Shown here: piece by piece, positions 3,001 through 32,210 of the stretch
How the letters are laid out: each line of letters begins with the position of its first letter
Position numbering within the stretch: the stretch's first letter is position 1
DNA from: a virus
Taxonomy: Duplodnaviria; Heunggongvirae; Uroviricota; Caudoviricetes
IMG/VR virus record: IMGVR_UViG_2534681675_000025
Location: 1 to 57,091 of that record
DNA length: 57,091 nt
Strand: one strand, 5' to 3'
Program-made: the position numbers and the translations under genes
Notes under the pieces: model-generated
Databases searched by the model: none
What the model saw: the letters and a program-made list of their open reading frames with translations, nothing else
What the model was told of the DNA's origin: nothing

Positions 3001-3690
3001 ATGATTAATCCTGCAAATGGCAACACAAAACCGATGTTTGTTGGTCAGGGTGATCAGATATTCATGAATGAAGTGTTCCTGAAATATCTGACGGCTCCCA
3101 CCATTACCAGCGGCGGTAATCCTCCTGCATTTTCCCTGACACCGGACGGAAAGCTGACCGCTAAAAATGCCGATATCAGCGGTAACGTGAATGCGAACTC
3201 CGGGACGCTCAACAACGTCACGATAAATGAGAACTGTCAGATTAAGGGGAAACTGTCAGCCAATCAGATTGAAGGCGATATTGTCAAAACGGTGGGAAAA
3301 TCCTTTCCGAGAAATGGCAGTTATGCCAGCGGTACAATAACGGTCACTGTGTACGATGACCAGGCTTTTGACCGTCAGATAGTAATCCCACCCGTTCTGT
3401 TTCGCGGTGGTAAGCATGAAAACTTTAACAGCAACAACCAACAGTCATACTGGTACTCAACCTGTAAGCTGCAGGTGCTGAAGAACGGACAGGAAATCTT
3501 TCAGCAACCCGCGACGGATGTCAGCAGGGTATTTTCATCCGTCATCGATATGCCTGCCGGACACGGGCATGTCACCCTGACTTTCAATGTTTCTTCATAT
3601 GGTGCTAATAACTGGACGCCAACGACCAGTATCAGCGACCTTCTTGTTGTCGTGATGAAGAAATCAACAGCCGGTATCAGTATCAGCTGA
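1..3690 (+). pseudogene. J: Lambda J-like host specificity (tail tip) gene, 5' end outside window, reading frame broken at about 372-395, 1771-1774 and 1890
   Basis: Three consecutive ORFs (55-435, 432-1829, 1924-3690) in frames 1/0/1 together read as one J-like protein (SVIDAISEGP..., KTTSQYLASVV..., C-terminal fibre domain); frame switches sit at G/A homopolymer runs. Confidence 0.8.
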
Positions 3691-3708
3691 ATTTTATAAC
3701 CCCAATAC

Positions 3709-3732
3709 GGGCGCCAGAAATGGCGCTTTTTT
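3709..3732 (+). terminator. Putative rho-independent terminator after J
   Basis: GC stem (gggcgcc/ggcgc) followed by a T-run. Confidence 0.45.
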
Positions 3733-3756
3733 ATTGCAGAAAAGCGAGAGGTAATT

Positions 3757-4356
3757 ATGCGTAAATTATGTGCTGTTATTCTGTCTGCAGTAGTCTGGCT
3801 GGTCGCCGCTGGTACGCCAGCGAGTGCAGCAGAGCATCAGTCCACACTAAGCGGCGGGTATCTTCAGTCCCATACTGATATGCCCGGAAACGATGACCTG
3901 AAGGGCATTAACGTGAAATACCGTTATGAATTTACGGACACGCTGGGGCTGGTGACGTCATTCAGCTATGCAGGAGACAAGAATCGCCAGCTGACCCGTT
4001 ACAGTGATACCCGCTGGCATGAAGATTCCGTTCGTAACCGCTGGTTCAGCGTAATGGCGGGGCCGTCTGTGCGCGTGAATGAATGGTTCAGCGCGTATGC
4101 GATGGCGGGTGTGGCTTACAGCCGTGTATCGACTTTCTCCGGGGATTATCTCCGCGTAACTGACAATAAGGGGAAAACGCACGATGTGCTGACCGGAAGT
4201 GATGACGGTCGCCGCAGCAACACGTCTCTGGCGTGGGGAGCTGGCGTGCAGTTTAACCCGACCGAATCCGTGGCTATTGATGTCGCTTATGAAGGCTCCG
4301 GCAGTGGCGACTGGCGCACTGACGGTTTCATCGTGGGTGTCGGTTATAAATTCTGA
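3757..4356 (+). CDS. lom: Lom/Ail-family outer membrane beta-barrel protein
   Basis: 199 aa, signal peptide, aromatic C-terminal YKF, position between J and stf as in lambda. Confidence 0.85.
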   Translation: MRKLCAVILSAVVWLVAAGTPASAAEHQSTLSGGYLQSHTDMPGNDDLKGINVKYRYEFTDTLGLVTSFSYAGDKNRQLTRYSDTRWHEDSVRNRWFSVMAGPSVRVNEWFSAYAMAGVAYSRVSTFSGDYLRVTDNKGKTHDVLTGSDDGRRSNTSLAWGAGVQFNPTESVAIDVAYEGSGSGDWRTDGFIVGVGYKF

Positions 4357-4382
4357 TTAGCCAGGTAACACAGTGTTATGAC

Positions 4383-4409
4383 AGCCCGCCGGTTCAGGCG
4401 GGCTTTTTT
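4383..4409 (+). terminator. Rho-independent terminator after lom
   Basis: agcccgcc-ggttcag-gcgggc stem followed by tttttt. Confidence 0.6.
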
Positions 4410-4414
4410 GTGGG

Positions 4415-6510
4415 GTGAATATGGCAGTAAAGATTTCAGGTGTCCTGAAGGACGGAGCGGGTGAGCCTGTCGTAAACTGTGCGATTGAATTGCGTGCCAG
4501 AAGAACCAGTCCGACAGTTGTGGTTAATATTGTGGCAACCTGTCTTACGGGAAGTGATGGCGGGTATACTATTAATGCTGAGCCGGGATTTTATGATGTA
4601 TTTTTGTCCCGCTCAGGGCATCCTCCTGTAAAGGCGGGGGAAATTTATGTTGCACCGACAGATGAGCCGGATACGCTGAATGCTTTTCTGGATGCACCAA
4701 AGGAGGGTGATTTACGCCCTGAGGTAATGAAGCGTTTTGAGGAAATGATAAATACCGTTTTTCGCTTGTCTGAGCAGGTGGTCAGTGACAGGGAGAGAGC
4801 AGAAACAGCTGCTGATGATGCAATCAATGCAGCAACATCTGCGGCGGTTAGTAAGGATGAGGCAGAAGAGCTAAAAAATCAGACACAGCAGAGCGCCGAA
4901 GCTGCAGCCGGAAACGCACAGCAGACGGCACAGGATGTGACGACAACCGCAACGGCCCGTGATGATGCGGAACGTTTTGCGGGTGAGGCAGAAAACAGCG
5001 CACAGTCATCAGGCACATCGCGGGATGAATCAGTCGATGCCGCCGAACGTGCCCGCCTTTATCATAATGCCGCATCATCAGCTGCAACCAGCGCGGAAAA
5101 TGCAGCAAATGCTGCACTCGGGCATGAAAACAGCGCCGCTGAATACGCCCGACAGGCTAAAGCCAGCCAGGATGCAGGTGCAGACAATGCGCAGGAAGCG
5201 AAACAGTACAGGGATGAGGCGCAGCAGATAGTTGATGACCTGAATGCAACAAATGCCTCCACGACAGAAAAAGGTCTGGTGCAACTGTGTAGTGATACGG
5301 ACAACGACAGCGAGGAACTGGCTGCCACGCCAAAGGCTGTCAAAACCGTCATGGACGAGACGAAACAAAAGCGCCACTGGACAGCCCGGCCTTCACCGGC
5401 ACCCCAACCACCCCAACCCCACCGGATGATGCCGCCGGTCTGGAAGCAGCGAACGCAGCGTTTGTGCGCAAACTGCTTGCTGCGCTGGTTGGCTCATCGC
5501 CGGAAGTTCTGGACACCCTGAACGAGCTGGCAGCGGCGCTGGGCAATGACCCGAACTTTGCGACGACAATCACAAACGCGCTGGCAGGCAAACAACCGCT
5601 TAATGACGTCTTAACGGCAATCAGCGCACTGACGCAACGGGCAGATAATCTTCTGTACTTCAATACAGACGGGAATGCCTCACTGTCTCTGCTGTCAGAG
5701 AAGGGCCGCGCATTGCTGGCGCATGACACGGCTGAAGCCATGCGCACGGAGCTTGAGCTGAGCGCGGCTGCGACGATGGAACCCCAGAGTGATATCCGTG
5801 ACCGCACACCGGGCAGGCTGGCCCTGTCCGGGATGTATGGGTTTGGACAGGCATTCACCAGCGCCGAAGCTCTGTCATTTAACGGACAGGCTGATTTCGT
5901 TATATGGCTGCAGACAGTCACCCCGGGGCGTTATGCGGTCAGTATTGCGGACTCCTCCACGCTGCTGGTGGGCACCACGAAATTTAACGGTATCATTGAT
6001 GTGATGTGGTCACCCTCTGATAACGATGGTTCAGACTCAGCGCGTAAATTCAAAACGCTGCTGTACTACAACCAGTATTACGAGGATGAGCACAGCATAC
6101 ATTGTATGCGTTATCGCTACAGTGGTAACAGCTGGAATGCAACATCAAGCCTTATTGTGTATGACGGCAACTCCCTGGCATATCTGATGTCCTCAACCGC
6201 CGGTAATGGTCCGTTCTCATATTACCAATACCCGGCCGTCGGTGTGCCGATTATGGCGGTATATCAGGGAGAAAGTTTTGGTGAAAATGCTTCTCTGGGA
6301 CTCGGTGATACTGTGCCGGGTTCCCGTCTTGGTCCTCTGGCCATGAGTGCACAGGTTAGTGATACAGGGACATACGCATCCTCACCGCAGGTTGTGATTG
6401 GCGGTGCCGGTGAATACAACTTCCCCGGTCGTTACACGGCGCTTTCGGGCCTGGGTAACAATTATGGTACTCAGCGTGGCTTTATCGGTCTTTTTGTACG
6501 CATTGAGTAA
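4415..6510 (+). pseudogene. stf: Side tail fibre gene (lambda Stf-like), single frameshift in an A-run at 5367-5370
   Basis: ORFs 4415-5521 and 5464-6510 are N- and C-terminal parts of one fibre; frame 1 upstream of 5464 reads KAPLDSPAFTGTPTTP..., continuous with the downstream ORF; A4 where A5 would keep the frame. Confidence 0.75.
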
Positions 6511-7097
6511 TGAGGAAATCAGGCATGAAAATCAGAGCGGTGAAAGGTATCAGAAACGCACATTATCTTGAAAATGGTGCGGTTGACTGCGAGGTGTTAT
6601 TTGAAGGTGAAACGGAGTTTGCCCTGTATACCGCCATACAGGATGACACGGCCCCGACAGGCCAGCACATCTGGCAGGAGCTGCAAAGCGGGAAATGGGG
6701 CGAAATCGCCCCGTTCACTGTCACGCCTGAACTTATTGCAGCGGCAAAGGATGCCAAAAGGCGGGAAATTGAGGCATGGCGCGACAGTCAGGAAAACGTT
6801 GAGTTTATTTTCACGTTTGATGGCCGTCGTTTTGATGGCGGAAAAACCTCGCAGTCACGCCTTGCGCCCGTGGTTGCAACAGCGCAGGCCGGACTGCTTC
6901 CGGATGGTTTTTTCTGGACTGATGCGGATAATAACAACGTCGTACTGACCAGGGAGAAACTTATTGCGCTGAACGATGCCATGATGGTGGCCATGGTGGC
7001 GGAGGGCTTTAAAATCCACGAACGCCAGCGCGAGATGAAGGAACAACTGAATAATCTGGATGATTTGCGTTCAATCAGAGCGTTTGACGTGACGTAA
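6510..7097 (+). CDS. tfa: Tail fibre assembly protein (Tfa)
   Basis: 195 aa, start overlaps stf stop, Tfa-like sequence, position after stf. Confidence 0.85.
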   Translation: MRKSGMKIRAVKGIRNAHYLENGAVDCEVLFEGETEFALYTAIQDDTAPTGQHIWQELQSGKWGEIAPFTVTPELIAAAKDAKRREIEAWRDSQENVEFIFTFDGRRFDGGKTSQSRLAPVVATAQAGLLPDGFFWTDADNNNVVLTREKLIALNDAMMVAMVAEGFKIHERQREMKEQLNNLDDLRSIRAFDVT

Positions 7098-7143
7098 TTG
7101 GTAGGTTGCGTCATGTTGAATTGTTACTCTTAGTTACAAATAG

Positions 7144-7295: not shown

Positions 7296-7340
7296 TGGTG
7301 GAGCTGGCGGGAGTTGAACCCGCGTCCGAAATTCCTACAT
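7296..7340 (-). other. ssrA: 3'-terminal 45 nt of ssrA (tmRNA) only; prophage attachment-site core, not a full tmRNA gene
   Basis: Reverse complement reads ATGTAGGAATTTCGGACGCGGGTTCAACTCCCGCCAGCTCCACCA (T-arm, acceptor 3' strand, CCA); upstream sequence diverges from tmRNA. Confidence 0.75.
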
Positions 7341-7472
7341 ACCATTTTTACTATAACAAAAACATGAACTTATGTTTAAAATCAGTATGTTAGTATTATT
7401 TTGTGTTTGTCTGTTTTACGCATTTTTAATGCTCTGCCGCCAAAATGCCGCCACTGGTTTTGCTTGGGAGAC

Positions 7473-8993
7473 TTATTCAGGCTTTAATTTATTGATAATA
7501 GAATCTACCATTTTAATGCCTGCCTCATTGACTATGACTGAATTGACTACTCTATCAAAATAGTCTTCTATATGGTGGGAAAATAGGAAAGCAGCACTTG
7601 ATGGTTTTTTGTTCTTTTCAACAGCAGATTGCAAGACTTCATGAGGCGGAATTTTAAACCTTTTGCATGATGCAATGAGATATTCAAACTCTTCAAATGA
7701 TAGACAAAAAATATTCTCTGTAGGGATATGATAGTTATGTTTAAACTTGTCATATATCTTATTCATCTCATCTTTAGCATAAGTATTAGCTAGGATACTA
7801 CCATTGCCTAAGAAAAGGTTTTTATATGTAATGCAAATGATATATGAGTTAGCCCTGAATGGAGCTATTATTCGCTCATTAGAGTATATTTCTCGATTAA
7901 CTTCGTGAGATTGTTCGATTGCTTTTAATACCGATTTCTTTATTTTTCCTGCAATATCCTCAGGGCGTAATGTTACCATGCCTTTTTGGTGTATCTCAAC
8001 GCCTTTAGCATCAATGAAAATATTTGCCTCAGTATGTGGAATGAAATAATCAACTACTTTATTATCTTTAGGTAGTCGTTCTTTAAGGTATTTTTCGTTA
8101 TGAAAATCAATTTCGCTTTCTTTTAGTATTAATTCCAGTGCATTTTCAAATACATTTCCAAAGCTATCCATGAACTTCTCGGCATCAGTTCTTCTTAAAA
8201 GATCATATATGAACGTCTGTATGCTTGTTGAAGTCAGTTGTGTGTGTATCTGAAAATACTCTGAACCTTTTTTTATTAATGGTTTTTCAAGGAAAGGTGA
8301 TGATGAGTAGTATTCAAGCAAAGGTTTATCATAGGTTTTTGATTTGCAAAATGTAGATAGTTCATTGTAATTTATTGATATTGCATCAAGAAATTTCTCA
8401 ATGGTATTTCTAGGAATGATGTCAAATAATATAGTAAATGTATCTACATTCATTTTTCTCACGGGATGCTCTTCTGTTATGTGAGTTATTAATATGTAAG
8501 ATAGCTTAAGAAAGTCTTCGATAGATACATTCGTGATAGTAAAAAAACTTGTCTTTATTTTATGGTTTTTTTCAAGTTCTGAAAATAGAAAGACTTGTCT
8601 GCTAATTGTGTTTAGAGCGTCAATTTTCTGGTAGATTCCTTGTTGGTATAGATTATTTCTAATGAAGAAATGCATGCCATTCTTCCTCTCAAGACCGATA
8701 GGAATAATGTTCAAGGTTTCATAAGTTTTTTGGAAGAGTTTTATTGCTTGATTTTTATCGAGGATTTTGAATTTTTTATTCTTGCCAGTTACTGACGCAG
8801 ACCACTTTAGACATAAATTAACAATCCAAGGCATGTGTCGTAACATGTGGATATTATCTTCAAATTTTTGTAAGTTATATTGCATACAGAATTCGATAAA
8901 TAAATCAGGGGAATAACCTTGGATTTCTGAACGAATAGCATCCATTCTTAACTTTGCAACCGCATCAGATTGAATATCTAATTTTTGAATCAC
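7473..8993 (-). CDS. Hypothetical protein, 506 aa, strongly AT-rich cargo gene between att remnant and int
   Basis: Long uninterrupted ORF; composition much more AT-rich than flanking phage genes; no motif I can recognise by eye. Confidence 0.7.
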   Translation of the reverse strand: MIQKLDIQSDAVAKLRMDAIRSEIQGYSPDLFIEFCMQYNLQKFEDNIHMLRHMPWIVNLCLKWSASVTGKNKKFKILDKNQAIKLFQKTYETLNIIPIGLERKNGMHFFIRNNLYQQGIYQKIDALNTISRQVFLFSELEKNHKIKTSFFTITNVSIEDFLKLSYILITHITEEHPVRKMNVDTFTILFDIIPRNTIEKFLDAISINYNELSTFCKSKTYDKPLLEYYSSSPFLEKPLIKKGSEYFQIHTQLTSTSIQTFIYDLLRRTDAEKFMDSFGNVFENALELILKESEIDFHNEKYLKERLPKDNKVVDYFIPHTEANIFIDAKGVEIHQKGMVTLRPEDIAGKIKKSVLKAIEQSHEVNREIYSNERIIAPFRANSYIICITYKNLFLGNGSILANTYAKDEMNKIYDKFKHNYHIPTENIFCLSFEEFEYLIASCKRFKIPPHEVLQSAVEKNKKPSSAAFLFSHHIEDYFDRVVNSVIVNEAGIKMVDSIINKLKPE

Positions 8994-9005
8994 AATAGGT
9001 CTCCA

Positions 9006-10019
9006 CTACAAATTATAAAGAGGATTTTTAGTCACCGCGTCTTCAAGGTGATCGGGCGAAAAGTGGGCGTAAATCATGGTCATTTTTATATCGGCATGAC
9101 CCAAAATATCACGCAGTACCAGTATGTTTCCGCCGTTCATCATAAAGTGACTGGCGAATGTATGGCGAAGCACGTGGGTGCATTGGCCCTCCGGTAGGTC
9201 AATACCGGCCCGCTTTACTGCCCGCTCAAAGGCTTTTCTGCATGGCGTGAATAACTTTCTTCTGTTTTTGGGGAGTTCATCATACAGATCCTGAGATATC
9301 GGCACAGTACGGTTTTTCTTGCCTTTTGTTTTTGTATAAGTAATTCGGTATTTCGATATTTGATGGCCCTGCAGATTTTCGGCTTCACTCCACCGTGCGC
9401 CAGTAGCCAGGCATATTTTTGCAATCATTAGTAAGCTAGGGCTTTGAGATTCAGCACATGCCGCCAACAGGCGCTTGATTTCGTCCGTGGAAAGAAAAGC
9501 CAGCTCACCTTCGGCAATTTTGAAGGTCGGAAGTCCTGCCAGCGGGTTTGGTGCTGACCAGTGTCCTAGTTTTTTTAATGTACCGAACACAGATGATAGA
9601 TTGCGCTGTTCAAGGTTTACCGTGCGGGGCTTAACGGGCGACATCAGCGTGCCATCTTCATTTCGCACTTCACCTTTTAGCCGTGCTTCGCGGTATTTCG
9701 TAAAGTCACCGGCAGTCAGCTCTGAAGCGATGGGATCGCCCAGACCATTACAGATAATTCCAAGTTTCGCCATGAGTCGCTTGGGGTCTGCGAGTGTTTG
9801 ACCATACAGGGAATACCACAGCTCAATTAATTCTGATAGGTGTCGCCGATCTTCCTTTTCTCCCAGCCAAGGTTTCTTGTTTACCTCGTCCATGGTGAAA
9901 TTCTCAAACGCAATGGCTTCGCCTTTCGTCGCAAATTGTTTGCGTACGCGTTTGCCATCTCGCCCGTTTGGGTAGCATTCACATAACCACTTTCCGTTCG
10001 GCTGTTTTCTGATGGTCAT
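9006..10019 (-). CDS. int: Tyrosine integrase (P2 Int family)
   Basis: 337 aa; C-terminal HVLRHTFASHF...GH...MIYAH catalytic region; adjacent to repressor. Confidence 0.9.
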   Translation of the reverse strand: MTIRKQPNGKWLCECYPNGRDGKRVRKQFATKGEAIAFENFTMDEVNKKPWLGEKEDRRHLSELIELWYSLYGQTLADPKRLMAKLGIICNGLGDPIASELTAGDFTKYREARLKGEVRNEDGTLMSPVKPRTVNLEQRNLSSVFGTLKKLGHWSAPNPLAGLPTFKIAEGELAFLSTDEIKRLLAACAESQSPSLLMIAKICLATGARWSEAENLQGHQISKYRITYTKTKGKKNRTVPISQDLYDELPKNRRKLFTPCRKAFERAVKRAGIDLPEGQCTHVLRHTFASHFMMNGGNILVLRDILGHADIKMTMIYAHFSPDHLEDAVTKNPLYNL

Positions 10020-10020
10020 A

Positions 10021-10653
10021 TCAAAGGCTCTTAATGATTTTCAGTGCGCGGCCTATTACCTCAATGTCATCCAGTTCGCACTCAAACGATGAATCATCCT
10101 GATGCACTACTAATCTGTTTCCCGGGAGTCGTGTCAATTTTACAATGCTTTTTATCCCGTCGATGTCCACTAACCACGTACCATTTACTGGTGGTGTTTG
10201 GTTGCGATCTATTAAATAAGAATCACCAGAAGTAGTCACCAGCAGCAGGTTGCTTGAGTCTGAGGGGAGTATGCTGCTATCAATGATTGCTTTTCCAGCA
10301 TCGATCAGCAAACCTCCGTTGAGAGTTGCCTTGTCAATTTCAGGAGATACAAGCTCCGAAAGAGGTTTAACTTTGCTAGAGTTCACGGAATTGATATTTT
10401 TTTTAGGGTCAATGTTTGAACCTGGATCGCCCTGTCCGGTAGTTAGCCACAGTAAAGAAACTCCTGTTTCCAAAGCGCACTGAATCACCCATTCTGCAGG
10501 AAAACTATCTCTTAAGTATCTGTTTGCCATAGTGCTTTTTGATGCGCCCAAGTGATCGCAAAGTTGCTGTCTGGACTTGAAATCATAGGCTGCCATTAGC
10601 CTATGGATAGCCTCTCTTCCCCCTGTATTCTCGCCAGCTTTTACTTGTATCAT
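10021..10653 (-). CDS. cI: CI-type prophage repressor (186 CI-like, two-domain)
   Basis: 210 aa, N-terminal HTH-like region, divergent from the lytic promoter, immediately upstream of int. Confidence 0.75.
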   Translation of the reverse strand: MIQVKAGENTGGREAIHRLMAAYDFKSRQQLCDHLGASKSTMANRYLRDSFPAEWVIQCALETGVSLLWLTTGQGDPGSNIDPKKNINSVNSSKVKPLSELVSPEIDKATLNGGLLIDAGKAIIDSSILPSDSSNLLLVTTSGDSYLIDRNQTPPVNGTWLVDIDGIKSIVKLTRLPGNRLVVHQDDSSFECELDDIEVIGRALKIIKSL

Positions 10654-10665
10654 TTTTTAATCCTG

Positions 10666-10717
10666 TTGACGTATCAAATATTGGATCGTAGTATCTTGGT
10701 GTATCAAATATTGAATC
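10666..10717 (+). promoter_or_regulatory. Rightward lytic promoter (pR-like) with two 17-bp direct-repeat operator copies
   Basis: TTGACG (10666-10671), 17-nt spacer, TAGTAT (10689-10694); repeats gtatcaaatattgRatc at 10671-10687 and 10701-10717. Confidence 0.55.
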
Positions 10718-10772
10718 AAATAAAACAAGATAAAACGACGTAAACCAAACCTTAATCGAGAGATACTGCACT

Positions 10773-11021
10773 ATGAGCAACGACATTTCAATTCGTGTAC
10801 CAAAAGTGATGGCGACACCAGCTGAGTTCGCGGAATGGGAAGGCCGCTCTCGCGGTTCGGTATATCAAATGATTCATAATGGTAAACTCGCTAAATTCTT
10901 GGAAAGAAAAGAAAAACCGAAAGACAGAGTATGTATACGTTACCTTGAGTACAAAAAGGAACAAGTCAGGAAAAACATGGGCCAATCCAATTTCAACTTT
11001 AATGTCATCGTTGGTGACTAA
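10773..11021 (+). CDS. Apl/Cox-like small DNA-binding protein (excision/transcriptional control)
   Basis: 82 aa, first gene of the rightward operon opposite the repressor, as apl in 186 or cox in P2. Confidence 0.55.
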   Translation: MSNDISIRVPKVMATPAEFAEWEGRSRGSVYQMIHNGKLAKFLERKEKPKDRVCIRYLEYKKEQVRKNMGQSNFNFNVIVGD

Positions 11022-11053
11022 GTTCAATTATGAGAACTTTCTAAGGGGGCAGC

Positions 11054-11563
11054 ATGTTTGATTACAAGATTTCCAAACATCCGCATTTTGATGAAGCCTG
11101 TAGAGCTTTTGCACTACGTCACAATATGGCAAAGCTGGCAGAACGTGCAGGAATGAATGTTCAGACACTGCGAAACAAACTCAATCCAGAGCAACCGCAT
11201 CAGCTCACCGCACCAGAAATCTGGTTGCTTACCGATCTGACTGAAGATTCAACGTTGGTAGACGGTTTTCTGGCACAGATTCATTGTCTGCCATGTGTTC
11301 CGATTAATGAGGTGGCAAAAGAGAAACTGCCGCATTACGTCATGAGTGCAACTGCAGAGATCGGGCGTGTTGCTGCAGGTGCGGTATCTGGCGATGTAAA
11401 AACCAGTGCAGGTCGTCGTGATGCTATCAGCAGCATTAACTCTGTAACACGACTGATGGCGCTGGCGGCTGTTTCATTGCAGGCCCGTTTACAGGCTAAT
11501 CCTGCGATGGCAAGTGCAGTTGATACTGTAACTGGCCTCGGTGCGTCATTCGGTTTGCTGTGA
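11054..11563 (+). CDS. cII: Phage 186 CII-like regulatory protein
   Basis: 169 aa, begins MFDYKISKHPHFDEACRAFALRHNMAKLAERAGMNVQTLRNKLNPEQPH, matching 186 CII as I recall it. Confidence 0.75.
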   Translation: MFDYKISKHPHFDEACRAFALRHNMAKLAERAGMNVQTLRNKLNPEQPHQLTAPEIWLLTDLTEDSTLVDGFLAQIHCLPCVPINEVAKEKLPHYVMSATAEIGRVAAGAVSGDVKTSAGRRDAISSINSVTRLMALAAVSLQARLQANPAMASAVDTVTGLGASFGLL

Positions 11564-11570
11564 GGTGCTT

Positions 11571-11771
11571 ATGCTGACGAAAGAACCATCATTTGCATCG
11601 CTGCTGGTAAAACAAAGCCCGGCAATGCACTACGGTCACGGCTGGATCATGGGGGAGGATGGTAAACGCTGGCATCCGTGCCGTTCACAAGATGAATTGC
11701 TGGCAGAACTATCTACGAAAAAACGGGGGAACAAATGGCTATTGAAGGCGCTGCGGCGACTGTTCCATTAA
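11571..11771 (+). CDS. Hypothetical early protein
   Basis: ATG at 11571 directly after cII stop; 66 aa. Confidence 0.45.
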   Translation: MLTKEPSFASLLVKQSPAMHYGHGWIMGEDGKRWHPCRSQDELLAELSTKKRGNKWLLKALRRLFH

Positions 11772-12076
11772 GCCCCGGTGAACGCCTGAATGGACTTAAC
11801 CATATTGCGGAGTTAAGGGCGAAAGTATTTGGCCTGAATATTGAGTCAGAGCTTGAGCGGTTTATTAAAGATATGCGTGATCCACGGGATATCAATAACG
11901 AACAAAATAAACGGGCACTGGCTGCTATATTCTTTATGGCAAAAATTCCAGCTGAACGTCATAGCATCAGCATTAATGAGCTGACCACTGACGAAAAGCG
12001 GGAGTTGATTAAAGCAATGAATCATTTTCGTGCAGTGGTGAGCTTATTTCCCAGACGGCTAACCATGCCGAATTAA
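11735..12076 (+). CDS. Hypothetical early protein
   Basis: 113-aa ORF in the early operon. Confidence 0.5.
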   Translation: MAIEGAAATVPLSPGERLNGLNHIAELRAKVFGLNIESELERFIKDMRDPRDINNEQNKRALAAIFFMAKIPAERHSISINELTTDEKRELIKAMNHFRAVVSLFPRRLTMPN

Positions 12077-12143
12077 CCAACTAATGAAATTAATGGCGTA
12101 AACCCGCCGGGTATCCCTTTATCTAAATTCAGGAGAATTGATT

Positions 12144-12377
12144 ATGCGTAATATTGAAACCCTCACGACTAAAACCGGACCGGATGATGCAGGGCTTAAT
12201 ATTTTACTGACAGAGGCTCGTCTGGAAGAACGCCGGGCAAGGGCTGAAGCAATGGCAGCTCGCCTTGATAGCCTGGCGTGTCATATCACATCCCGCCAGC
12301 TAAACCACGTCGAAGCAGCAGAACTACTGCGTGTAACTGCTGAAGCAATCCAGAACGAAGCGCAGGAGATCCACTAA
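12144..12377 (+). CDS. Hypothetical early protein
   Basis: ATG at 12144 preceded by AGGAGA; 77 aa. Confidence 0.5.
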   Translation: MRNIETLTTKTGPDDAGLNILLTEARLEERRARAEAMAARLDSLACHITSRQLNHVEAAELLRVTAEAIQNEAQEIH

Positions 12378-12604
12378 TGGCTGATGCAATGGATCTTGTA
12401 CAGCAGCGCGTTGAAGAAGAACGCCAGCGCCATATCCGTGCTGCCCGTGCCAAAACGCCGGGCGTGTCCCGCGTGCTTTGCATTGAGTGTGAAGCGCCAA
12501 TTCCGCCAGCACGCCGCCGCGCCATTCCAGGTGTGCAGCTTTGCATTACCTGTCAGGAAATCGCAGAACTGAAAGGCAAACATTACAACGGAGGTGCTGT
12601 ATGA
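12377..12604 (+). CDS. TraR/DksA-family C4 zinc-finger protein
   Basis: 75 aa with CIECEAPI...CITCQ (four Cys); common small early gene in P2-like phages. Confidence 0.7.
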   Translation: MADAMDLVQQRVEEERQRHIRAARAKTPGVSRVLCIECEAPIPPARRRAIPGVQLCITCQEIAELKGKHYNGGAV

Positions 12605-13458
12605 GCACCATCCTGAAATGGGCGGGAAATAAAACCGCCATTATGTCCGAACTGAAAAAACACCTTCCTGCTGGCCCGCGACTGGTTGAACCTTTCGCGG
12701 GTTCCTGTGCTGTGATGATGGAGACGGATTACCCCAGCTATCTGGTTGCGGATATTAATCCTGATTTAATCAACCTCTATAAAAAGGTTGCCGCTGATTG
12801 TGAATCGTTTATATCTCGCGCCAGAGTTTTATTTGAGATCGCAAACAGGGAGGTGGCTTATTACAACATAAGGCAGGAGTTTAATTACTCCACTGAAATT
12901 ACTGATTTCATGAAAGCGGTATATTTCCTGTATCTCAATCGTCACGGTTACCGTGGTTTATGTCGCTATAACAAGAGCGGGCATTTCAACATTCCCTACG
13001 GTAATTATAAAAATCCGTATTTCCCTGAAAAAGAAATTCGCGCATTTGCAGAAAAAGCCCAGCGGGCAACGTTTATCTGCGCCAGCTTTGATGAAACGCT
13101 GGCGATGTTGAAGGCGGGGGATGTGGTGTATTGCGATCCGCCGTATGACGGCACGTTTTCCGGTTATCACACTGACGGCTTCACTGAAGATGACCAGTAT
13201 CACCTGGCATCCGTTCTTGAACATCGGTCATCAGAAGGACATCCGGTCATTGTTTCTAACAGTGACACATCCCTGATCCGTTCGCTGTATCGCAATTTTA
13301 CTCACCACTACATCAAGGCAAAACGCAACATCGGTGTGGCAGCTGGCGAGGGTAAATCAGCAACAGAAATCATTGCTGTTTCCGGGCCGCGCTGCTGGGT
13401 GGGATTTGATTATTCGCGTGGCGTGGACAGTTCTGCCGTGTACGGAGTACGTGCATGA
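12601..13458 (+). CDS. dam: DNA adenine methyltransferase (Dam-like, N6-adenine)
   Basis: Begins [11 protein letters not shown]; contains DPPY motif ([10 protein letters not shown]) and N-terminal SAM-binding region FAGSCAV. Confidence 0.85.
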
Positions 13459-15869
13459 GTCATGCCGATATGAACAACTGCTGCGGCTTTAACGAGGCTA
13501 CCGCAGCATTCTCATGGAACAGCCCGAAAAAGGCCATTAACCCTTATCTGGACCCGGCGGAAGTTGCGCCGGTTTCTGCGCTTTCAAACCTGATCACTCT
13601 GTACGCTGCCGATAACGAGCAGGAACAACTGCGCCGTGAGGCACTGAGTGATCAGGTCTGGGAGCGTTATTTCTTTAATGAATCCCGTGATCCTGTCCAG
13701 CGCGAAATGGAGCAGGATAAGCTAATTAGCCGGGCAAAGCTGGCGCATGAGCAGCAGCGTTTTAATCCAGACATGGTCATTCTGGCGGATGTCAACGCCC
13801 AGCCTTCCCATATCAGCAAGCCGCTGATGCAACGTATTAAATACTTCAGCAACCTGGGCAGGCCAAAGGCTTATTCCCGCTATTTGCGTGAGACGATTAA
13901 GCCATGCTTGGAACGACTGGAGCATGTACGCGACAGCCAGCTATCTGCATCTTTTCGTTTTATGGCAAGCCATGAAGGGCTGGACGGTCTGCTGATCCTG
14001 CCTGAAATGAGTCAGGATCAGGTGAAACGCCTGTCCACCCTTGTCGCTGCGCATATGAGCATGTGTCTTGATGCCGCTTGTGGTGATTTGTACGCCTCCG
14101 ATGATGTTAAGCCGGAAGAAATCCGCAAGACATGGGAAAAGGTGGCAGCAGAAACCCTGCGACTGGATGTCATACCGCCTGCGTTTGAGCAACTCCGCCG
14201 GAAAAGAAACCGCCGCAAACCTGTGCCCTATGAACTCATTCCGGGTTCGCTGGCGCGTATGCTGTGCGCCGACTGGTGGTATCGGAAATTATGGAAGATG
14301 CGTTGCGAATGGCGGGAAGAGCAGTTGCGTGCTGTCTGTCTGGTCAGCAAAAAAGCATCTCCCTATGTCAGCTATGAAGCCGTGATGCATAAACGTGAGC
14401 AGCGCCGTAAGTCGCTGGAGTTTTTCCGTTCTCATGAACTGGTGAACGAAGACGGCGACACGCTGGACATGGAGGATGTGGTAAACGCCAGCAGCAGCAA
14501 CCCTGCGCATCGCCGCAATGAGATGATGGCCTGTGTTAAAGGCCTGGAGCTTATCGCGGAAATACGCGGTGACTGCGCCGTTTTCTACACCATCACCTGT
14601 CCGTCACGTTTCCATTCCACGCTAAATAACGGCAGGCCCAACCCGACCTGGACAAATGCGACGGTAAGACAAAGCAGTGATTATCTGGTTGGCATGTTTG
14701 CTGCATTTCGTAAGGCGATGCACAAAGCCGGATTGCGCTGGTATGGCGTGCGGGTGGCTGAGCCGCATCATGACGGTACAGTTCACTGGCACCTGTTGTG
14801 TTTTATGCGCAAAAAAGATCGCCGCGCCATTACTGCTTTGTTGCGTAAGTTTGCCATTCGTGAAGACCGCGAGGAGCTGGGGAATAACACGGGACCACGC
14901 TTTAAGTCTGAGTTGATTAACCCGCGCAAAGGAACGCCGACAAGCTACATCGCGAAATATATCAGTAAGAACATTGACGGGCGTGGTCTGGCTGGCGAGA
15001 TCAGCAAGGAAACGGGTAAATCCCTGCGTGATAACGCTGAATACGTGAATGCCTGGGCGTCTCTGCATCGTGTTCAGCAATTCCGCTTCTTTGGCATTCC
15101 GGGGCGTCAGGCTTACCGTGAACTGCGATTGCTGGCTGGTCAGGCGGCAAGGCAACAGGGTGACAAAAAAGCAGGTGCGCCGGTACTGGATAACCCGCGC
15201 CTTGATGCAATCCTGGCTGCTGCTGATGCTGGTTGTTTTGCCACCTACATCATGAAGCAGGGCGGCGTACTGGTTCCCCGTAAATATCACCTCATCAGAA
15301 CCGCTTATGAAATCAACGAAGAGCCAACCGCCTATGGCGATCACGGTATTCGTATTTATGGCATCTGGTCACCCATTGCAGAGGGCAAGATCTGCACTCA
15401 TGCAGTGAAGTGGAAAATGGTTCGTAAGGCCGTTGACATTCAGGAGGCGGCAGCCGACCAGGGCGCTTGCGCCCCTTGGACTCGTGGCAATAACTGTCCC
15501 CTTGCTGAAAATTTGAACCAACAGGAGAAAGATAAATCAGCTGATGGGGGCCCCAGAACGGACTTTACCCGCATGGATGACAAGGAGTTGCACGATTACC
15601 TGCACAGTATGAACAAAAAGGGGCGCCGGGAACTGGCTGCAAGGTTACGTCTGGTGAAACCGAAACGGCGTAGAGACTACAAACAGCGAATTACAGACCA
15701 TCAACGACAGCAGCTCGTCTATGAACTGAAATCCAGAGGATTTGATGGCAGCGAGAAAGAGGTCGATTTACTCCTTCGCGGCGGCAGTATTCCGTCAGGA
15801 GCAGGCCTGCGTATCTTCTATCGGAACCAGCGTTTGCAGGAAGATGATAAGTGGCGGAACCTGTATTAA
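13455..15869 (+). CDS. A: Replication initiation endonuclease (P2 gene A family, rolling-circle initiator)
   Basis: 804 aa; conserved region [16 protein letters not shown] and HxH region HWHLLCF typical of P2/186 A proteins. Confidence 0.9.
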
Positions 15870-15962
15870 TTACGCTGGTTAACAATTCGTGCTCTTAATA
15901 ATACCAGGCATATCAGGCTGATAAGCGTAAAAAAAACGTTTTACATCAGTAAGATTATTATA

Positions 15963-15982
15963 TACTGTAAATATAAACAGTG
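15963..15982. promoter_or_regulatory. Candidate LexA (SOS) box upstream of the DinI-like module
   Basis: tactgtaaatataaacagtg = CTGT-N8-ACAG consensus, about 45 bp upstream of the 16024 ORF. Confidence 0.55.
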
Positions 15983-16023
15983 GTTATACATACAGCATTG
16001 CGTGTGGTGTCATAGGAGGAAAG

Positions 16024-16212
16024 ATGCAGGACTATTTTTTGGAGTCTTTGAAGCTCCAGCGCATTGATTTTTTTCTTAAGCTTGTAGCGGCTAGTGAGTG
16101 TAGTGATGAAGAGAAGGGGCTGGCTCTGCAGTGGGTTTCTGAATTGACTGATGAACTCATGGCAAAAATCAGAAGCCACGAATACAACCGCTCAATGGAT
16201 GTCATCAGCTGA
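16024..16212 (+). CDS. Hypothetical small protein, possibly Tum-like antirepressor N-terminal part
   Basis: 62-aa ORF downstream of the LexA box and immediately upstream of the DinI-like gene. Confidence 0.4.
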   Translation: MQDYFLESLKLQRIDFFLKLVAASECSDEEKGLALQWVSELTDELMAKIRSHEYNRSMDVIS

Positions 16213-16222
16213 GGTGACTTTT

Positions 16223-16456
16223 ATGCGCATTGAAATAATGATCGATAAAGAGCAGAAGATTAGCCAGTCTACCCTGGACGCCCTTGAATCCGAGCTTTAC
16301 CGCAATCTGCGCCCCCTGTATCCCAAAACGGTAATCCGTATCCGTAAAGGTAGCTCTAACGGTGTGGAACTGACCGGACTGCAACTGGACGAAGAAAGAA
16401 AACAAGTGATGAAAATTATGCAGAAGGTGTGGGAAGACGACAGCTGGCTGTATTGA
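16223..16456 (+). CDS. DinI-family protein
   Basis: 77 aa, MRIEIMIDKEQ...VWEDDSWLY, resembles DinI (MRIEVTI...WESADDWF). Confidence 0.75.
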   Translation: MRIEIMIDKEQKISQSTLDALESELYRNLRPLYPKTVIRIRKGSSNGVELTGLQLDEERKQVMKIMQKVWEDDSWLY

Positions 16457-16569
16457 TTTTGTCAATAGACGCTTGTTTTTACTAATCAAAAAGGGTTACA
16501 TATGAGTGAGAGGCGATGTCAATCAGATATCGCCTTGTTTTTTGTCAAGAAAAGAATAATAGGCTAAAA

Positions 16570-17247
16570 ATGAAAATTAATAATGTAGCGTTACCAATAT
16601 CTCTTGCTGTAATCCTAACTGGTTGCGTGCCACATGCTTCTAACCGAAATATCACTGCTATTGAAGTGGTGAAGCCTGCTATTGGGCAAAGTGCTACCGC
16701 CTACATGGGCGATCCCATTATCACATCTGCTACTGGATTTAAAACGGACGTACTAGAACTTGGTGCGGCTAATGGTGCATTGTCTTCTATCGCTGCTGGT
16801 ACATATTGCAGTGAGGGGAATGGAATTTACCGCAATTATCATAACCCTCAAGCTGTTGCGTTAAAAAATCTCTATGGGCAAATCGGTAACTATGTTGATT
16901 ATGTTAGTTACGATGCTGCAAAAAATGAGATATCACCGCCAAATGGTACTTCTTATACTGCATCAGAAATTTCTATCAAACGTGTTCCTGATGGGCTGTG
17001 TCGAGTTAGTAACTCATTGGTTAAGACTATCGAATACAATGGAAATGCAGGCGGTGTAATGAAGTTCACCTATCGTGAATTTGCAAACGATATGGCTCGT
17101 GCAGCATTTACAACAGATTTTTCTGTAGATTCTAAGGGAAGTGACGTTATCGCTTACAAAGGTGCCAAGTTCAAAGTGAACAAGGCTGATAACTCGTCTA
17201 TTTCTTATACAATTATTTCTGGCTTTGACAAGGCTGTCACGTTCTAG
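16570..17247 (+). CDS. Predicted lipoprotein, function unknown (cargo)
   Basis: MKINNVALPISLAVILTGC lipobox signal; 225 aa; lies between the replication gene and cos. Confidence 0.7.
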   Translation: MKINNVALPISLAVILTGCVPHASNRNITAIEVVKPAIGQSATAYMGDPIITSATGFKTDVLELGAANGALSSIAAGTYCSEGNGIYRNYHNPQAVALKNLYGQIGNYVDYVSYDAAKNEISPPNGTSYTASEISIKRVPDGLCRVSNSLVKTIEYNGNAGGVMKFTYREFANDMARAAFTTDFSVDSKGSDVIAYKGAKFKVNKADNSSISYTIISGFDKAVTF

Positions 17248-17350
17248 GTTTCACGCTTACTGAGTATGTTACGATTTTGCACATTCTGCATAAGCGCGCA
17301 TGTCTATGCTGCATGAGATCGCATGATCGTTTGAGGATCTTTTGTGTTAA

Positions 17351-17375
17351 GGCCCGCCAGTTCTGGCGGGCTTTT
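17351..17375 (+). terminator. Putative terminator after the lipoprotein gene
   Basis: ggcccgccag-ttc-tggcgggc stem followed by tttt. Confidence 0.5.
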
Positions 17376-17420
17376 GCGTAGATCATGCAGGTGCATGAAA
17401 ACCACTACATAAAGCGGGCA

Positions 17421-17439
17421 GGCGTGGCGGGGATACGAG
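17421..17439 (+). other. Candidate cos (cohesive end) site of prophage 1
   Basis: ggcgtggcggggatacgag followed by cgcgcgct; resembles the P2/186 cohesive-end sequence as I recall it (GGCGAGGCGGGGAAAGCAC then TGCGCGCT). Confidence 0.5.
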
Positions 17440-17549
17440 CGCGCGCTCATGGTTGAATTAATGAAATTATGGTGTTAAATAGGCTAGCTTTTTAAGTCGT
17501 GAATATTCAATTTTTCAACTCATTTTTTTCATAGGGAGGAGTAATTGAC

Positions 17550-18248
17550 ATGGTTATGTTAGTGGATGACTGTCCACGATGTGGATCACAAAAAATAGCG
17601 TTTGATGTTAATGGGCTGAATTGCACTAGGGTTTACAATGCATTGGGCGGGGGTAAAACATACGAGTACGAGGTCTATTGTGTTTGCCGAGAGTGTCATA
17701 AAACGACAATGTTTCTTTGCAGACCTTTAACGAAAAATAAAACTTTAGATGGCTATAATTGGGAAAGTGGAATATTCGGCTTAAAGGAAGTTGCAGAGGT
17801 TGTTAGGCCTATATCACCGGCAGACTTAGCAGTAGAGGAGCCACCAGAGTTCTTACCTGAGCATATCAATAGTGCATATGAGGAAGGGGCGAAATGTTTG
17901 GCTATAGGTTGTTATAATGCAGCAGCAACCATGTTTAGGCTTTGCCTTGATTATGCCACAAAAGGACTTCTTCCTGATGGGGAGCAAGGGCCTGCGCAAA
18001 AAATAAGGAGAAGCCTAGGGTTAAGAATGGAGTGGTTATTTGATAATCATCTACTGCCTGAAGCTTTAAGGGAACTAGCTGAATGCGTTAAAGATGACGG
18101 AAATGATGGAGCGCATGAAGGTATTTTGGATAAAGCTGCTGCTGAGGATCTTGAAGATTTTACCTATCTTTTTTTAGAACGGCTTTACACTGAACCTCAA
18201 CGCCTTATCGAAGCCAAGACAAGGCGTGAACAAAGAAGAAACAAATAA
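17550..18248 (+). CDS. Zinc-ribbon plus alpha-helical domain protein (possibly DUF4145-like), inserted between cos and Q
   Basis: 232 aa; N-terminal CPRCG...CVCRECH four-Cys ribbon; RBS gggagga before ATG; convergent with Q, 3' ends 8 bp apart. Confidence 0.7.
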   Translation: MVMLVDDCPRCGSQKIAFDVNGLNCTRVYNALGGGKTYEYEVYCVCRECHKTTMFLCRPLTKNKTLDGYNWESGIFGLKEVAEVVRPISPADLAVEEPPEFLPEHINSAYEEGAKCLAIGCYNAAATMFRLCLDYATKGLLPDGEQGPAQKIRRSLGLRMEWLFDNHLLPEALRELAECVKDDGNDGAHEGILDKAAAEDLEDFTYLFLERLYTEPQRLIEAKTRREQRRNK

Positions 18249-18256
18249 GTTCGGAA

Positions 18257-19294
18257 TTATTCTTCTGAAAGAATATAGGGCGTAAATTTAATCACTTCTT
18301 CGCCCAGCCAGTCGTTCAGCTCTTGTAGCCTTTTTTGCAAGGGAGTTAATTCATTACGTACAAATACGCGACTGGCCTTCTCCACATCCCCAAACCCTCC
18401 AACATTATTAGGCATAATCCCCATCATTTGCGGCGGCACGCGGTGCGCAGCCATCATGTCGTCGCGGCTGACATTTTTGATATTCAAAAACTCATCCTTC
18501 GCCGCGACTTCTGACAATGGGATGATCTGAAGCCCGTCTTTTTTGCCGTTAGGCGAGTACATAAACAGGTTGCGGAAGTTGCCTGGACCTTTGGCGCTTT
18601 TCATCGCATTGCGGAGGTTGTTCACATCCTCCTGGTTTTGCGCGGCATCGGTCATGTACATGATAAAGCCCGCATGACTGCCGTTAATGTAATACTTGCG
18701 ACGGAACAGCGTGGCGGACTCGTTGAGCAGGGCTGACGGAATGGCAGAAAGATAACCGGGCAGGCCGTAGATCTCCTGATTAATATCCGGTTCCATCAGA
18801 TGAAAAATGCTGCCTTTCGTGAACTGATACGGCTGGGTTGTCATACCGTATTGCACAAACCAGTAGGTATCCAGGTCTAACCCGCGTCGGGTGTATTTTG
18901 CCAGTGCAGGCTCAAGGGCGATAACTTCACCGAAGCGGTTCGTGCGTTTCTCCAGGTAGGCGTTACCAAAAACCAGATAGTCCTGCACAAAACGCGAAAA
19001 AGCCTGCTGGCTGAGCAGCGGGTGAGGGATGTAGGTGCTGGTCAGAATGTTGCACTTTACTGCAATCGGGGAACTATGATGCACGGCAGCGCGGAAGGTG
19101 CGCGCCAGTCCGTCAAAGCTGACGGGCGGCTCATACCAGCGGTCCATCTGTACGCATTCCACATAATCCAGCAGTTCTCGGCGGTCCAGAACAGGAACGG
19201 GATCGCCGAAGCTGAATGCTTCGGCTGTAGTTTGACTTTTAAGCTGGATCTGTTTCGTCGCCGCAGCGCGGTTCTTCTTACTCTTTCCCATCAA
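18257..19294 (-). CDS. Q: Portal protein (P2 gpQ family)
   Basis: 345 aa, P2 Q-like sequence and position next to terminase P. Confidence 0.9.
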   Translation of the reverse strand: MMGKSKKNRAAATKQIQLKSQTTAEAFSFGDPVPVLDRRELLDYVECVQMDRWYEPPVSFDGLARTFRAAVHHSSPIAVKCNILTSTYIPHPLLSQQAFSRFVQDYLVFGNAYLEKRTNRFGEVIALEPALAKYTRRGLDLDTYWFVQYGMTTQPYQFTKGSIFHLMEPDINQEIYGLPGYLSAIPSALLNESATLFRRKYYINGSHAGFIMYMTDAAQNQEDVNNLRNAMKSAKGPGNFRNLFMYSPNGKKDGLQIIPLSEVAAKDEFLNIKNVSRDDMMAAHRVPPQMMGIMPNNVGGFGDVEKASRVFVRNELTPLQKRLQELNDWLGEEVIKFTPYILSEE

Positions 19295-29098: not shown

Positions 29099-29696
29099 TC
29101 TGCTGCCACCGGGTTCAACTTCACTGGAGCGCCGACTGGCGCAAACCTGTAGCGGGATTTCTGATCTGCAGGTGCCGCTGCGTGACTTGTGGAATCCGGC
29201 TACCTGTCCGGTCAGCTTCCTGCCTTATCTCGCCTGGGCGTTCTCTGTGGATCGCTGGGACGAGGGCTGGACAGAAAGCGTCAAACGCCAGGTAGTGAAG
29301 GATGCTTTTTATATTCATCAGCATAAAGGAACTACCAGTGCCGTGCGGCGGGTGGTGGAACCGTTCGGATTCCTGATCCGCATTATTGAGTGGTGGCAGA
29401 CCGGAGAAACACCGGGCACGTTTCGCCTGGATATCGGCGTGCAGGACCAGGGCATCACTGAAGATACCTATCTGGAACTTGAGCGGCTGATAAGCGATGC
29501 CAAACCATGTAGCCGTCACATGATCGGCATGTCCATCAATCTGCAGACCAGCGGTCCGCATTGGGTGGGGGCCGCCAGCTATCTTGGCGAAGAAATCACG
29601 ATCTATCCGTATATCAACGAAACAATTATTTCCGGCGGCACCGCGCATGAAGGCGGGGCGGTCCATGTTATTGACACAATGAGAGTGAATCCATGA
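29091..29696 (+). CDS. I: Baseplate protein (P2 gpI family)
   Basis: 201 aa, begins MNSLLPPGSTSLERRL. Confidence 0.85.
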   Translation: MNSLLPPGSTSLERRLAQTCSGISDLQVPLRDLWNPATCPVSFLPYLAWAFSVDRWDEGWTESVKRQVVKDAFYIHQHKGTTSAVRRVVEPFGFLIRIIEWWQTGETPGTFRLDIGVQDQGITEDTYLELERLISDAKPCSRHMIGMSINLQTSGPHWVGAASYLGEEITIYPYINETIISGGTAHEGGAVHVIDTMRVNP

Positions 29697-31210: not shown

Positions 31211-31803
31211 TGAAACCTGTTTTTGATGAAAATGGACTGGCTACAGTGCCGGGTGATATGCGTTGTTTTTATTATGATGCAGTAACGTATGAATATACGG
31301 GCTGGTCTGATGAATATATTAATACTGGTATAAGTATGCCCGCCTGTTCCACTGGTATTGACCCTGGCGAAAACATTCCGGGAAAAGTGGCTGTATTTAC
31401 AGGTAAGGGATGGAGCCATGAAGAGGACCATCGCAATGAGACTGTTTACTCAATCGAAAATGGCGCAGCTGTTACAGTGGATTATATCGGTGCCATCAAA
31501 AACGGTTATGTCACGCTTTCACCGTTAACGCCATATGATAAATGGGATGGTGAGAAATGGGTGACAGATACTGAGGCACAACACGGTGCCGCAGTAGAAG
31601 CGGCAGAAGCACAGCGTCAGCCACTGATTGATGCTGCAATGGCTTCCATCAGTCTGATTCAGCTGAAATTACAGGCCGGGCGGAAGCTGACGCAGGCAGA
31701 AACCACCCGGCTTAACGCCGTGCTTGATTACATTGACGCGGTGACGGCAACAGATACGAGCACCGCTCCGGATGTCATCTGGCCTGAACTGCCGGAGGCG
31801 TAG
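31210..31803 (+). CDS. G: Tail fibre assembly protein (P2 gpG family)
   Basis: 197 aa, start overlaps H stop. Confidence 0.8.
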   Translation: MKPVFDENGLATVPGDMRCFYYDAVTYEYTGWSDEYINTGISMPACSTGIDPGENIPGKVAVFTGKGWSHEEDHRNETVYSIENGAAVTVDYIGAIKNGYVTLSPLTPYDKWDGEKWVTDTEAQHGAAVEAAEAQRQPLIDAAMASISLIQLKLQAGRKLTQAETTRLNAVLDYIDAVTATDTSTAPDVIWPELPEA

Positions 31804-32209: not shown

Positions 32210-32210
32210 A

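Follow-up and report, generated by a model that had tools for sequence, protein, structure and literature searches.

A LexA-controlled tumA-tumB-like operon as the probable induction switch of a Fels-2-like Escherichia coli prophage

The stretch of DNA analysed here (57,091 nucleotides, positions 1 to 57,091 of the IMG/VR virus record IMGVR_UViG_2534681675_000025, Caudoviricetes; hereafter the window) carries two small genes directly behind the replication gene A of a P2-like prophage, which we call prophage 1. We conclude, with a probability of roughly 80%, that this locus is the SOS operon of a Fels-2-like (Peduoviridae) E. coli prophage and operates in the manner of the coliphage 186 p95-tum operon. 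The present analysis establishes the sequence features and how far they are conserved, as well as the homologies and the repressor type, whereas LexA binding, the interaction of the antirepressor TumA with the repressor CI and the role of TumB are carried over from the biochemistry of 186 Tum, the genetics of PSP3 and the lethality of lexA null mutations that is caused by Fels-2. A preliminary description of the window had proposed a 186-type induction switch that is present as two separate open reading frames (ORFs), and this proposal is supported by synteny, the identity to TumB, the profile homology to the N-terminal half of Tum and the 186-type CI. The components are as follows (aa, amino acids).

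15940-15945, + strand: -35 hexamer TTTACA of the predicted SOS promoter, equivalent of 186 p95, kept in seven diverged relatives
15963-15982, + strand: LexA box 1, TACTGTAAATATAAACAGTG, overlapping the presumed -10 hexamer; weight-matrix score 24.4 bits
15978-15997, + strand: LexA box 2, CAGTGGTTATACATACAGCA, offset by 15 bp from box 1 and overlapping it by 5 bp; 15.8 bits
16024-16212, + strand: tumA-like gene for a 62-aa presumed antirepressor (ATG 16024, TGA 16212, Shine-Dalgarno sequence AGGAGG at 16014-16019)
16223-16456, + strand: tumB-like gene for a 77-aa DinI-family protein (ATG 16223, TGA 16456, Shine-Dalgarno sequence GAGG at 16211-16214)
16510-16546, + strand: hairpin resembling an intrinsic terminator (11-bp stem with 5 GC pairs, then the T run GTTTTTTGTC), closing the two-gene operon
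10021-10653, - strand: cI, 186-type immunity repressor and presumed target of the antirepressor (Pfam Phage_CI_repr, E 6e-31; Phage_CI_C, E 4.8e-28)

Tum of phage 186 binds its repressor and prevents it from binding to the operators, and the second half of Tum resembles DinI (PMC3121763). In Fels-2 and PSP3, the tum gene of 186 is present as two parts (PMC3121763, citing Bunny 2002), and in PSP3 the antirepressor activity is reported to reside in the upstream gene (PMC3121763). Furthermore, a lexA null mutation is lethal in strain LT2 owing to the induction of Fels-2 (PMC8072944). By analogy, two LexA dimers would occupy the double operator (15963-15997) in the undamaged lysogen, where they would cover the -10 region and the transcription start and keep the operon silent. 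Upon DNA damage, RecA-stimulated cleavage of LexA would open the TTTACA-N17-TACTGT promoter, and the 62-aa TumA-like protein would then bind the 186-type CI and stop it from binding to its operators. With CI lost from the operators, the early lytic operon (apl, cII ... A) would be derepressed and lytic development would follow. The co-transcribed 77-aa TumB would bind RecA filaments and tune the strength or duration of the SOS signal, rather than act as the antirepressor, and the hairpin would end the transcription unit.

The position and layout of the operon agree with this proposal. The 804-aa ORF directly upstream (13455-15869) matches Pfam Phage_GPA (E 2.6e-127), the replication gene A of P2 and 186. 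Past the end of gene A the operon begins at about 15940, in the same orientation and at the end of the early region. The near-consensus SOS box upstream of a 62-aa ORF and a DinI-family gene, as initially described, is confirmed, with 41 nt between the end of LexA box 1 and the ATG of the 62-aa ORF. Substitutions relative to homologous loci fall mostly in third codon positions of the two ORFs (107 of 168 and 138 of 222, respectively), which indicates that the + strand frames of both are under selection. At the far end, an RNA fold of 16457-16560 yields the same hairpin that we list as terminator, and the partial terminator t95a is its positional equivalent in 186.

The second gene is readily assigned. 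Its 77-aa product matches all 63 positions of the Pfam DinI profile (PF06183; E 6.6e-23) with a score of 81.3 bits, which exceeds the cutoff of 24.2, so that the call of a DinI-family gene was correct. The protein also matches phrog_189 (positions 71-148 of 151) and the structure of E. coli DinI (1GHH, E 2.4e-6), with identities of 77% to PSP3 TumB and 41% to 186 Tum (residues 71-145). It does not reach the cutoff of the equivalog model for chromosomal DinI (NCBIfam NF007893, 42.6 versus 111 bits) and is thus a TumB-type phage paralogue and not the host dinI. A mechanically called ORF of 101 aa from 16151 corresponds to this gene as well, but its start, further upstream, is unlikely. The two genes lie in different frames, and the GAGG of the second overlaps the stop codon of the first. 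We also considered translational coupling through a hairpin over the tumB ribosome-binding site (16201-16218); this hairpin forms in the window and in Fels-2, but five other relatives do not preserve it, and we rejected the idea.

The first gene requires more sensitive comparisons. The 62-aa ORF matches no Pfam or NCBIfam family, and a search of solved structures with the TumA profile gave no match. Among PHROG profiles it matches phrog_698 (E 5.9e-38), phrog_8554 (1.1e-8) and phrog_1993 (2e-3); the N-terminal 70 residues of 186 Tum match the same three profiles, with phrog_1993 first (2e-23), then phrog_8554 (3.3e-12) and phrog_698 (6.7e-6, residues 7-44). PSP3 TumA matches phrog_1993 (2.7e-32). 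We aligned a profile of eight members of the window family to a profile of the 186 Tum N-terminus, PSP3 TumA and a Yersinia 'tum protein'. In this comparison (hhalign), residues 7-42 of the 62-aa ORF and the residues of the same numbers in 186 Tum pair in register, with a probability of 85.5% and an E-value of 5.7e-6. A joint alignment forms a graded chain from the window through ESSI-2/ev015, Yersinia and 186 to PSP3, with the shared core C-x6-[LI]A[LI]-x-[WL]-[IVL]-x-E-[LIM]. From these profile alignments we conclude that the 62-aa ORF is homologous, though divergent, to the N-terminal half of 186 Tum, which is the antirepressor half and is not DinI-like. The relationship between Tum and DinI, as first described, thus holds for the C-terminal half of Tum but not for the antirepressor half, which the 62-aa ORF represents. 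RefSeq and the source names shown for the homologue clusters label this gene as 'hypothetical protein', an annotation gap that can be closed with the name TumA-like. The family alignment is shallow, with members that are 82-100% identical. In the homologue of Escherichia phage 500465-1 (701-886 of the extracted locus) the conserved core reads RGWLCSG where all others have KGLALQW or KRLAIQW, which looks like a compensated double frameshift.

The division into two genes is natural and conserved rather than a lesion. In 186, both modules are fused in one protein of 146 aa, whose N-terminal module resembles the window protein at the profile level only; in addition, internal starts in 186 give rise to a separate DinI-like product. 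In PSP3, gene A is followed, as in the window, by a LexA box, a TumA of about 60 aa and a 77-aa DinI-like TumB. PSP3 tumA and tumB share one frame with a stop codon between them, whereas the genes in the window are in different frames; PSP3 TumA falls into phrog_1993, which the window ORF reaches only at the E-value given above. In each of seven relatives, which represent five genera, the genes are divided by a stop codon (TGA, TAA or TAG), and a Shine-Dalgarno sequence lies 6-9 nt before the ATG of the DinI gene. A search of 5.8 billion proteins returned 483 clusters of homologues of the 62-aa ORF, from Escherichia, Salmonella, Raoultella, Enterobacter, Kosakonia, Citrobacter, Pectobacterium and Lonsdalea; the proteins of the best 120 of these range from 55 to 109 aa, and none carries a fused DinI domain. 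The question of whether tum is split here or naturally bipartite, which had been raised at the outset, is therefore answered in favour of separate conserved genes with ribosome-binding sites of their own. Furthermore, three phages carry a TumA-like gene behind a single LexA box without a DinI gene (coordinates are those of the extracted loci).

701-913: Escherichia phage ESSI2_ev015
701-925: Cronobacter phage ESSI-2
674-859: Yersinia phage vB_YenM_06.16-2

The fused, adjacent and solo occurrences together show that the antirepressor and DinI modules are independent units.

These observations bear on a different explanation of the operon, namely that it is an accessory module (a moron) that modulates the SOS response, in which the DinI-like protein acts on host RecA, the 62-aa protein is an unrelated partner and the prophage is induced by other means. 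Such a module has a precedent in the Gifsy prophages of Salmonella, whose LexA-controlled DinI homologues have a role of their own in RecA modulation (PMC3121763), and the missing family assignment and the label of the 62-aa ORF, together with its negative BLASTP comparison to Tum (see below), would fit an unrelated partner. However, the same-register profile homology to the antirepressor half of Tum and the three phages with a TumA-like gene alone, which make the small protein the constant element, speak against it. In addition, a CI without an S24 match (see below) requires some antirepressor, and the matrix scan detected no other strong LexA site in prophage 1. We therefore consider the accessory module improbable. 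The Gifsy operons dinI-gfoA/gftA are also informative as a parallel to the antirepressor switch, as they are LexA-controlled and combine a DinI homologue with a small antirepressor that acts against a non-cleavable repressor (PMC3121763); their gene order is reversed, with dinI first, and they belong to lambdoid phages with unrelated repressors.

To score LexA sites, we used a 20-bp weight matrix from 25 E. coli operators described in the literature; all scores are approximate. The training sites score 13.8-27.9 bits, and the best match per random 57-kb sequence (n=100) has a mean of 11.3 bits (standard deviation 1.9, maximum 16.4). Box 1, with 24.4 bits, ranks first in the window and exceeds all 100 random controls. 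The site that immediately adjoins it, box 2, ranks second (15.8 bits, compared to the random maximum of 16.4). The preliminary description had reported a single SOS box; box 1 stands, whereas the overlapping box 2 had been missed. All remaining matches in the window score at most 12.6 bits and are inside the random range, and the scan detected no further strong LexA site in prophage 1. The bare pattern CTGT-N8-ACAG is weak evidence for a LexA box, with three occurrences in the window against 0.81 expected and three of 100 shuffles that also reach three. Its two other occurrences, at 5653 and 49921, lie within ORFs, and we rejected them as candidates (one scores 8.4 bits, the other less than 6.8, outside the twelve best matches).

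Both boxes are found at the same 15-bp offset in all nine relatives with this type of 62-aa ORF, which include Fels-2, RE2010, SopEPhi, SEN8, two Klebsiella phages (other genera), a Yersinia pestis phage and E. coli phage 500465-1. Among these nine, box 2 scores 10.4-19.4 bits; that of 500465-1 is a weaker one, with 12.7 bits. Across seven diverged promoters, the spacers and flanks have changed, and the CTGT/ACAG cores of box 1 have not. Five blocks are unchanged throughout: TTTACA; TATACTGTA, which comprises the -10 region together with the left half of box 1; CAGT, where the two boxes overlap; ATACAG, the right half of box 2; and AGGAGG. The LexA-like sequence might instead be a chance AT-rich palindrome in an intergenic region, with the ORFs expressed constitutively or by early-operon read-through from gene A, and the merely marginal enrichment of the bare pattern speaks for this. 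Yet the score of the full 20-bp site is far beyond all random controls, both boxes are invariant amid diverging flanks, and 186, PSP3 and colicin promoters share this operator design. A chance origin is thus effectively refuted.

The promoter assignment relies on conservation and on the parallel with 186 p95. The distance between TTTACA and TACTGT is constant at 17 nt across the seven relatives while the sequence of the spacer varies. A generic sigma-70 promoter scan did not call this promoter, because TACTGT agrees with TATAAT at only three of six positions. In 186, p95 is annotated as TTCACA-18 nt-TACTGT, lies directly after gene A and has a LexA box that begins at the -10 hexamer. Only one LexA box is present in 186, PSP3, ESSI-2, ev015 and the Yersinia enterocolitica phage.

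The double box resembles a known regulatory element. In a plasmid search with the 68-bp promoter, several hundred small mobilizable plasmids match the operator only, with 83-88% identity over 41-42 nt. In both Col plasmids that we inspected (n=2), a colicin gene starts 45-85 nt downstream of the match, and alignment to these sites recovers the same two overlapping SOS boxes, each 20 bp long and offset by 15 bp. The two overlapping boxes of colicin operons bind two LexA dimers, which prevents untimely expression (PMC2994835). Judging by offset, overlap and sequence resemblance, the operator in the window is a conserved double SOS box of the colicin type. The similarity does not extend to the rest of the promoter: in colicin promoters the -35 hexamer is 9 nt further upstream and the boxes lie just past the -10 hexamer, whereas box 1 in the window overlaps it, and the genes that follow are unrelated to the operon genes. 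The resemblance to colicin genes predicts that two LexA dimers would repress the phage promoter tightly as well. In a literature search that did not extend to Bunny 2002, we found no mention of a double box at this promoter or of a link between tum promoters and colicin-type boxes.

The repressor provides the reason for an antirepressor. The window CI has the architecture of 186 CI (PF07022 and PF16452, the Phage_CI_repr/Phage_CI_C type) and is 32% identical to it over the full length (E 6e-34). A Pfam scan of CI at E up to 0.01 gave no match to an S24 peptidase, which implies that CI does not respond directly to RecA and that an antirepressor is needed for induction. The locus would thus explain how a prophage whose repressor cannot cleave itself senses DNA damage.

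Several points weigh against reading the locus as a p95-tum-like switch. Pairwise BLASTP gives no alignment of the 62-aa ORF with 186 Tum or PSP3 TumA, and the sole Tum match in a tblastn search is the Yersinia 'tum protein' at E=4; the homology depends on profiles over about 36 residues. The similarity to Tum that was demanded in the preliminary description is hence absent at the level of BLASTP and present at the level of profiles. We found no published antirepressor activity for the Fels-2-type protein itself, and the result for the PSP3 antirepressor is a personal communication that is cited second-hand (PMC3121763). The scores of the LexA matrix are approximate. Prophage 1 is joined at the tail-fibre genes to a second, inverted P2-like prophage, so that the switch may no longer lead to phage production. 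Lastly, TumA and CI do not diverge together: TumA is 85-98% identical to the window protein in phages whose CI is only 37-58% identical to the window CI, as the following three examples illustrate.

4LV2017: TumA identity 98.4%, CI identity 40.4%
RE2010: TumA identity 96.8%, CI identity 51.9%
ST13-OXA48phi12.1: TumA identity 90.3%, CI identity 37.0%

A specific antagonist would not be expected to show such decoupling, unless the surface of CI that it contacts is conserved. The TumA-paired CI proteins have 70-90% identity in residues 36-76, which form the second half of the helix-turn-helix domain, whereas the linker and C-terminal domain are 16-63% identical. The consensus of the conserved segment is SKSTMANRYLRDSFPA[ED]W[VI]IQCALETG.SL.WL.TGQG, and 186 CI is only 41% identical there. 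This segment may be the contact surface of TumA, which would allow cross-induction between immunity types; alternatively, the fold may just tolerate the least change there. Going further, the Fels-2-type TumA could be a 'master key' antirepressor that recognises a conserved surface of the N-terminal domain of CI at about residues 36-76, with one SOS cassette inducing P2-like prophages of several immunity types in trans, and with a colicin-type double operator that sets a high damage threshold absent from the single-box promoters of 186 and PSP3. We put this forward as a speculative extension, and one that we doubt more than we believe. One antirepressor that serves many CI variants would predict cross-induction among co-resident P2-like prophages. 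Within the window, we considered the repressor-like ORF of the second P2-like prophage (52376-52996) as another target of TumA and rejected it, as it is unrelated to the 186-type CI; the second prophage has neither a 186-type CI nor a strong LexA site in the matrix scan.

Whether a functional switch still has a phage to induce depends on the structure of the prophage. The gene order in prophage 1 is Q, P, O, N ... H, G, up to 31803. The mirrored P2-like prophage that follows bears, on its minus strand, G', H', I, J ... N, O, and these are succeeded by P, Q, an A-like gene and an int gene at 56069. The comparison with PHROG profiles covered H, G, G', H', I and J, some cargo ORFs and the A-like gene, and the remainder of this map follows from ORF size and position. 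Thus, at 29693-35186, two P2-like halves are joined tail-fibre to tail-fibre in opposite orientation, with H and G of prophage 1 (29693-31803, + strand) abutting G', H', I and J of the mirrored prophage (31775-35186, - strand) at a junction near 31775-31803. The arrangement points to an inversion that involved both prophages, or else to faulty assembly. The switch could accordingly be intact but disconnected, if inversion or recombination with the second P2-like prophage has split prophage 1; TumA would then derepress the early genes without a complete excised phage, and the response would be cryptic or suicidal. This possibility concerns the output of the switch and not its identity. Neither half contains an ORF of the size expected for sheath, tube, tape-measure or D (ORFs outside the PHROG comparison being judged by size and position), and the window holds no further attachment-site (att) repeat of the segment 7050-7500. 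E. coli MFDS1019527 is 100% identical to the window over 7296-18300, save for an IS21 insertion in that strain, and there the junction segment lies about 0.9 Mb away. On the other hand, head-to-head tail-fibre-assembly genes are common in E. coli prophages, with 75% coverage matches in many genomes, and can be invertible segments; the junction could also be a misassembly across repeated prophage DNA, and every component of the switch is intact. We take disconnection as a serious possibility, albeit not the outcome that we expect.

Compared to known systems, the p95-tum-like operon of the window is closest to that of Fels-2 (NC_010463), with 96.8% DNA identity across the whole 691-bp region. 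The counterpart of TumA is STM2728 (annotated as 'hypothetical', 96.8% identical), and STM2726.1 is of the DinI family and annotated as 'similar to TumB of PsP3'; both genes lie downstream of gpA. The double LexA operator, the gene order, the terminator sequence and the downstream 243-aa ORF are common to both. Box 2 differs at three positions (...ACATACAGCA in the window, ...ATGTACAGTA in Fels-2), the hosts are E. coli and Salmonella, respectively, and the cargo genes past the 243-aa ORF are different. The immunity type also appears to differ from the Fels-2 type, as judged by the CI of the Fels-2-like RE2010. The split tum arrangement is already known for Fels-2 and PSP3, and the locus is thus real but ordinary. 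What we add is the placement of the 62-aa gene in the TumA antirepressor family, the colicin-type double LexA operator and the decoupled divergence of TumA and CI. The locus bears on the induction of prophages by antibiotics and on the spread of the cargo genes that they carry, and involves no new principle.

Prophage 1 also has the following genes.

9006-10019, - strand: int
10773-11021: apl-like gene
11054-11563: cII (Pfam Phage_CP76)

Around the operon, an Rfam scan of 15500-18300 gave no match, and PADLOC gave none for either operon protein. Between the operon and the portal gene, in the position of tin/old in P2, lies variable cargo (16516-18248), which is replaced by different genes in E. 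coli strain WEC, Fels-2 and RE2010. It includes the 243-aa ORF, a probable lipoprotein with the likely start ATG 16571 (MKINNVALPISLAVILTGC, phrog_1353), and a DUF4145 protein with a weak PADLOC match to PD-T7-4 (E 1.2e-6). We considered the former as a homologue of 186 orf97, but the two are unrelated (E 4.5) although both have 243 aa. Another cargo gene (7473-8993, - strand), between the end of the prophage and int, encodes 506 aa and is named gapS1 in RefSeq (GapS1 family, a candidate anti-phage gene); it matches neither Pfam nor PADLOC models.

A stretch of 40 nt on the minus strand (7296-7335) matches the 3' end of the transfer-messenger RNA gene ssrA; its Rfam score of 36.7 bits does not reach the gathering score. 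ARAGORN detected no complete transfer-messenger RNA in the window, and the stretch has no repeat elsewhere in it; it is probably the displaced att fragment at the left end of prophage 1. The second P2-like prophage encodes, at 46615-52020 (- strand), an unusually long A-type replication protein of 950 aa (phrog_91/6857), a ParB-like protein (48132-49091), a Plasmid_stab_B protein (47816-48262) and a weak Mom-like ORF (46615-47145). Finally, positions 1-7100 hold the end of a different, probably lambdoid, prophage that adjoins the P2-like one; by their translations alone, its genes are a host-specificity (J-like) tail gene, a long tail-fibre gene, a gene for a Lom-like outer-membrane protein (3757-4356) and tail-fibre/assembly genes.

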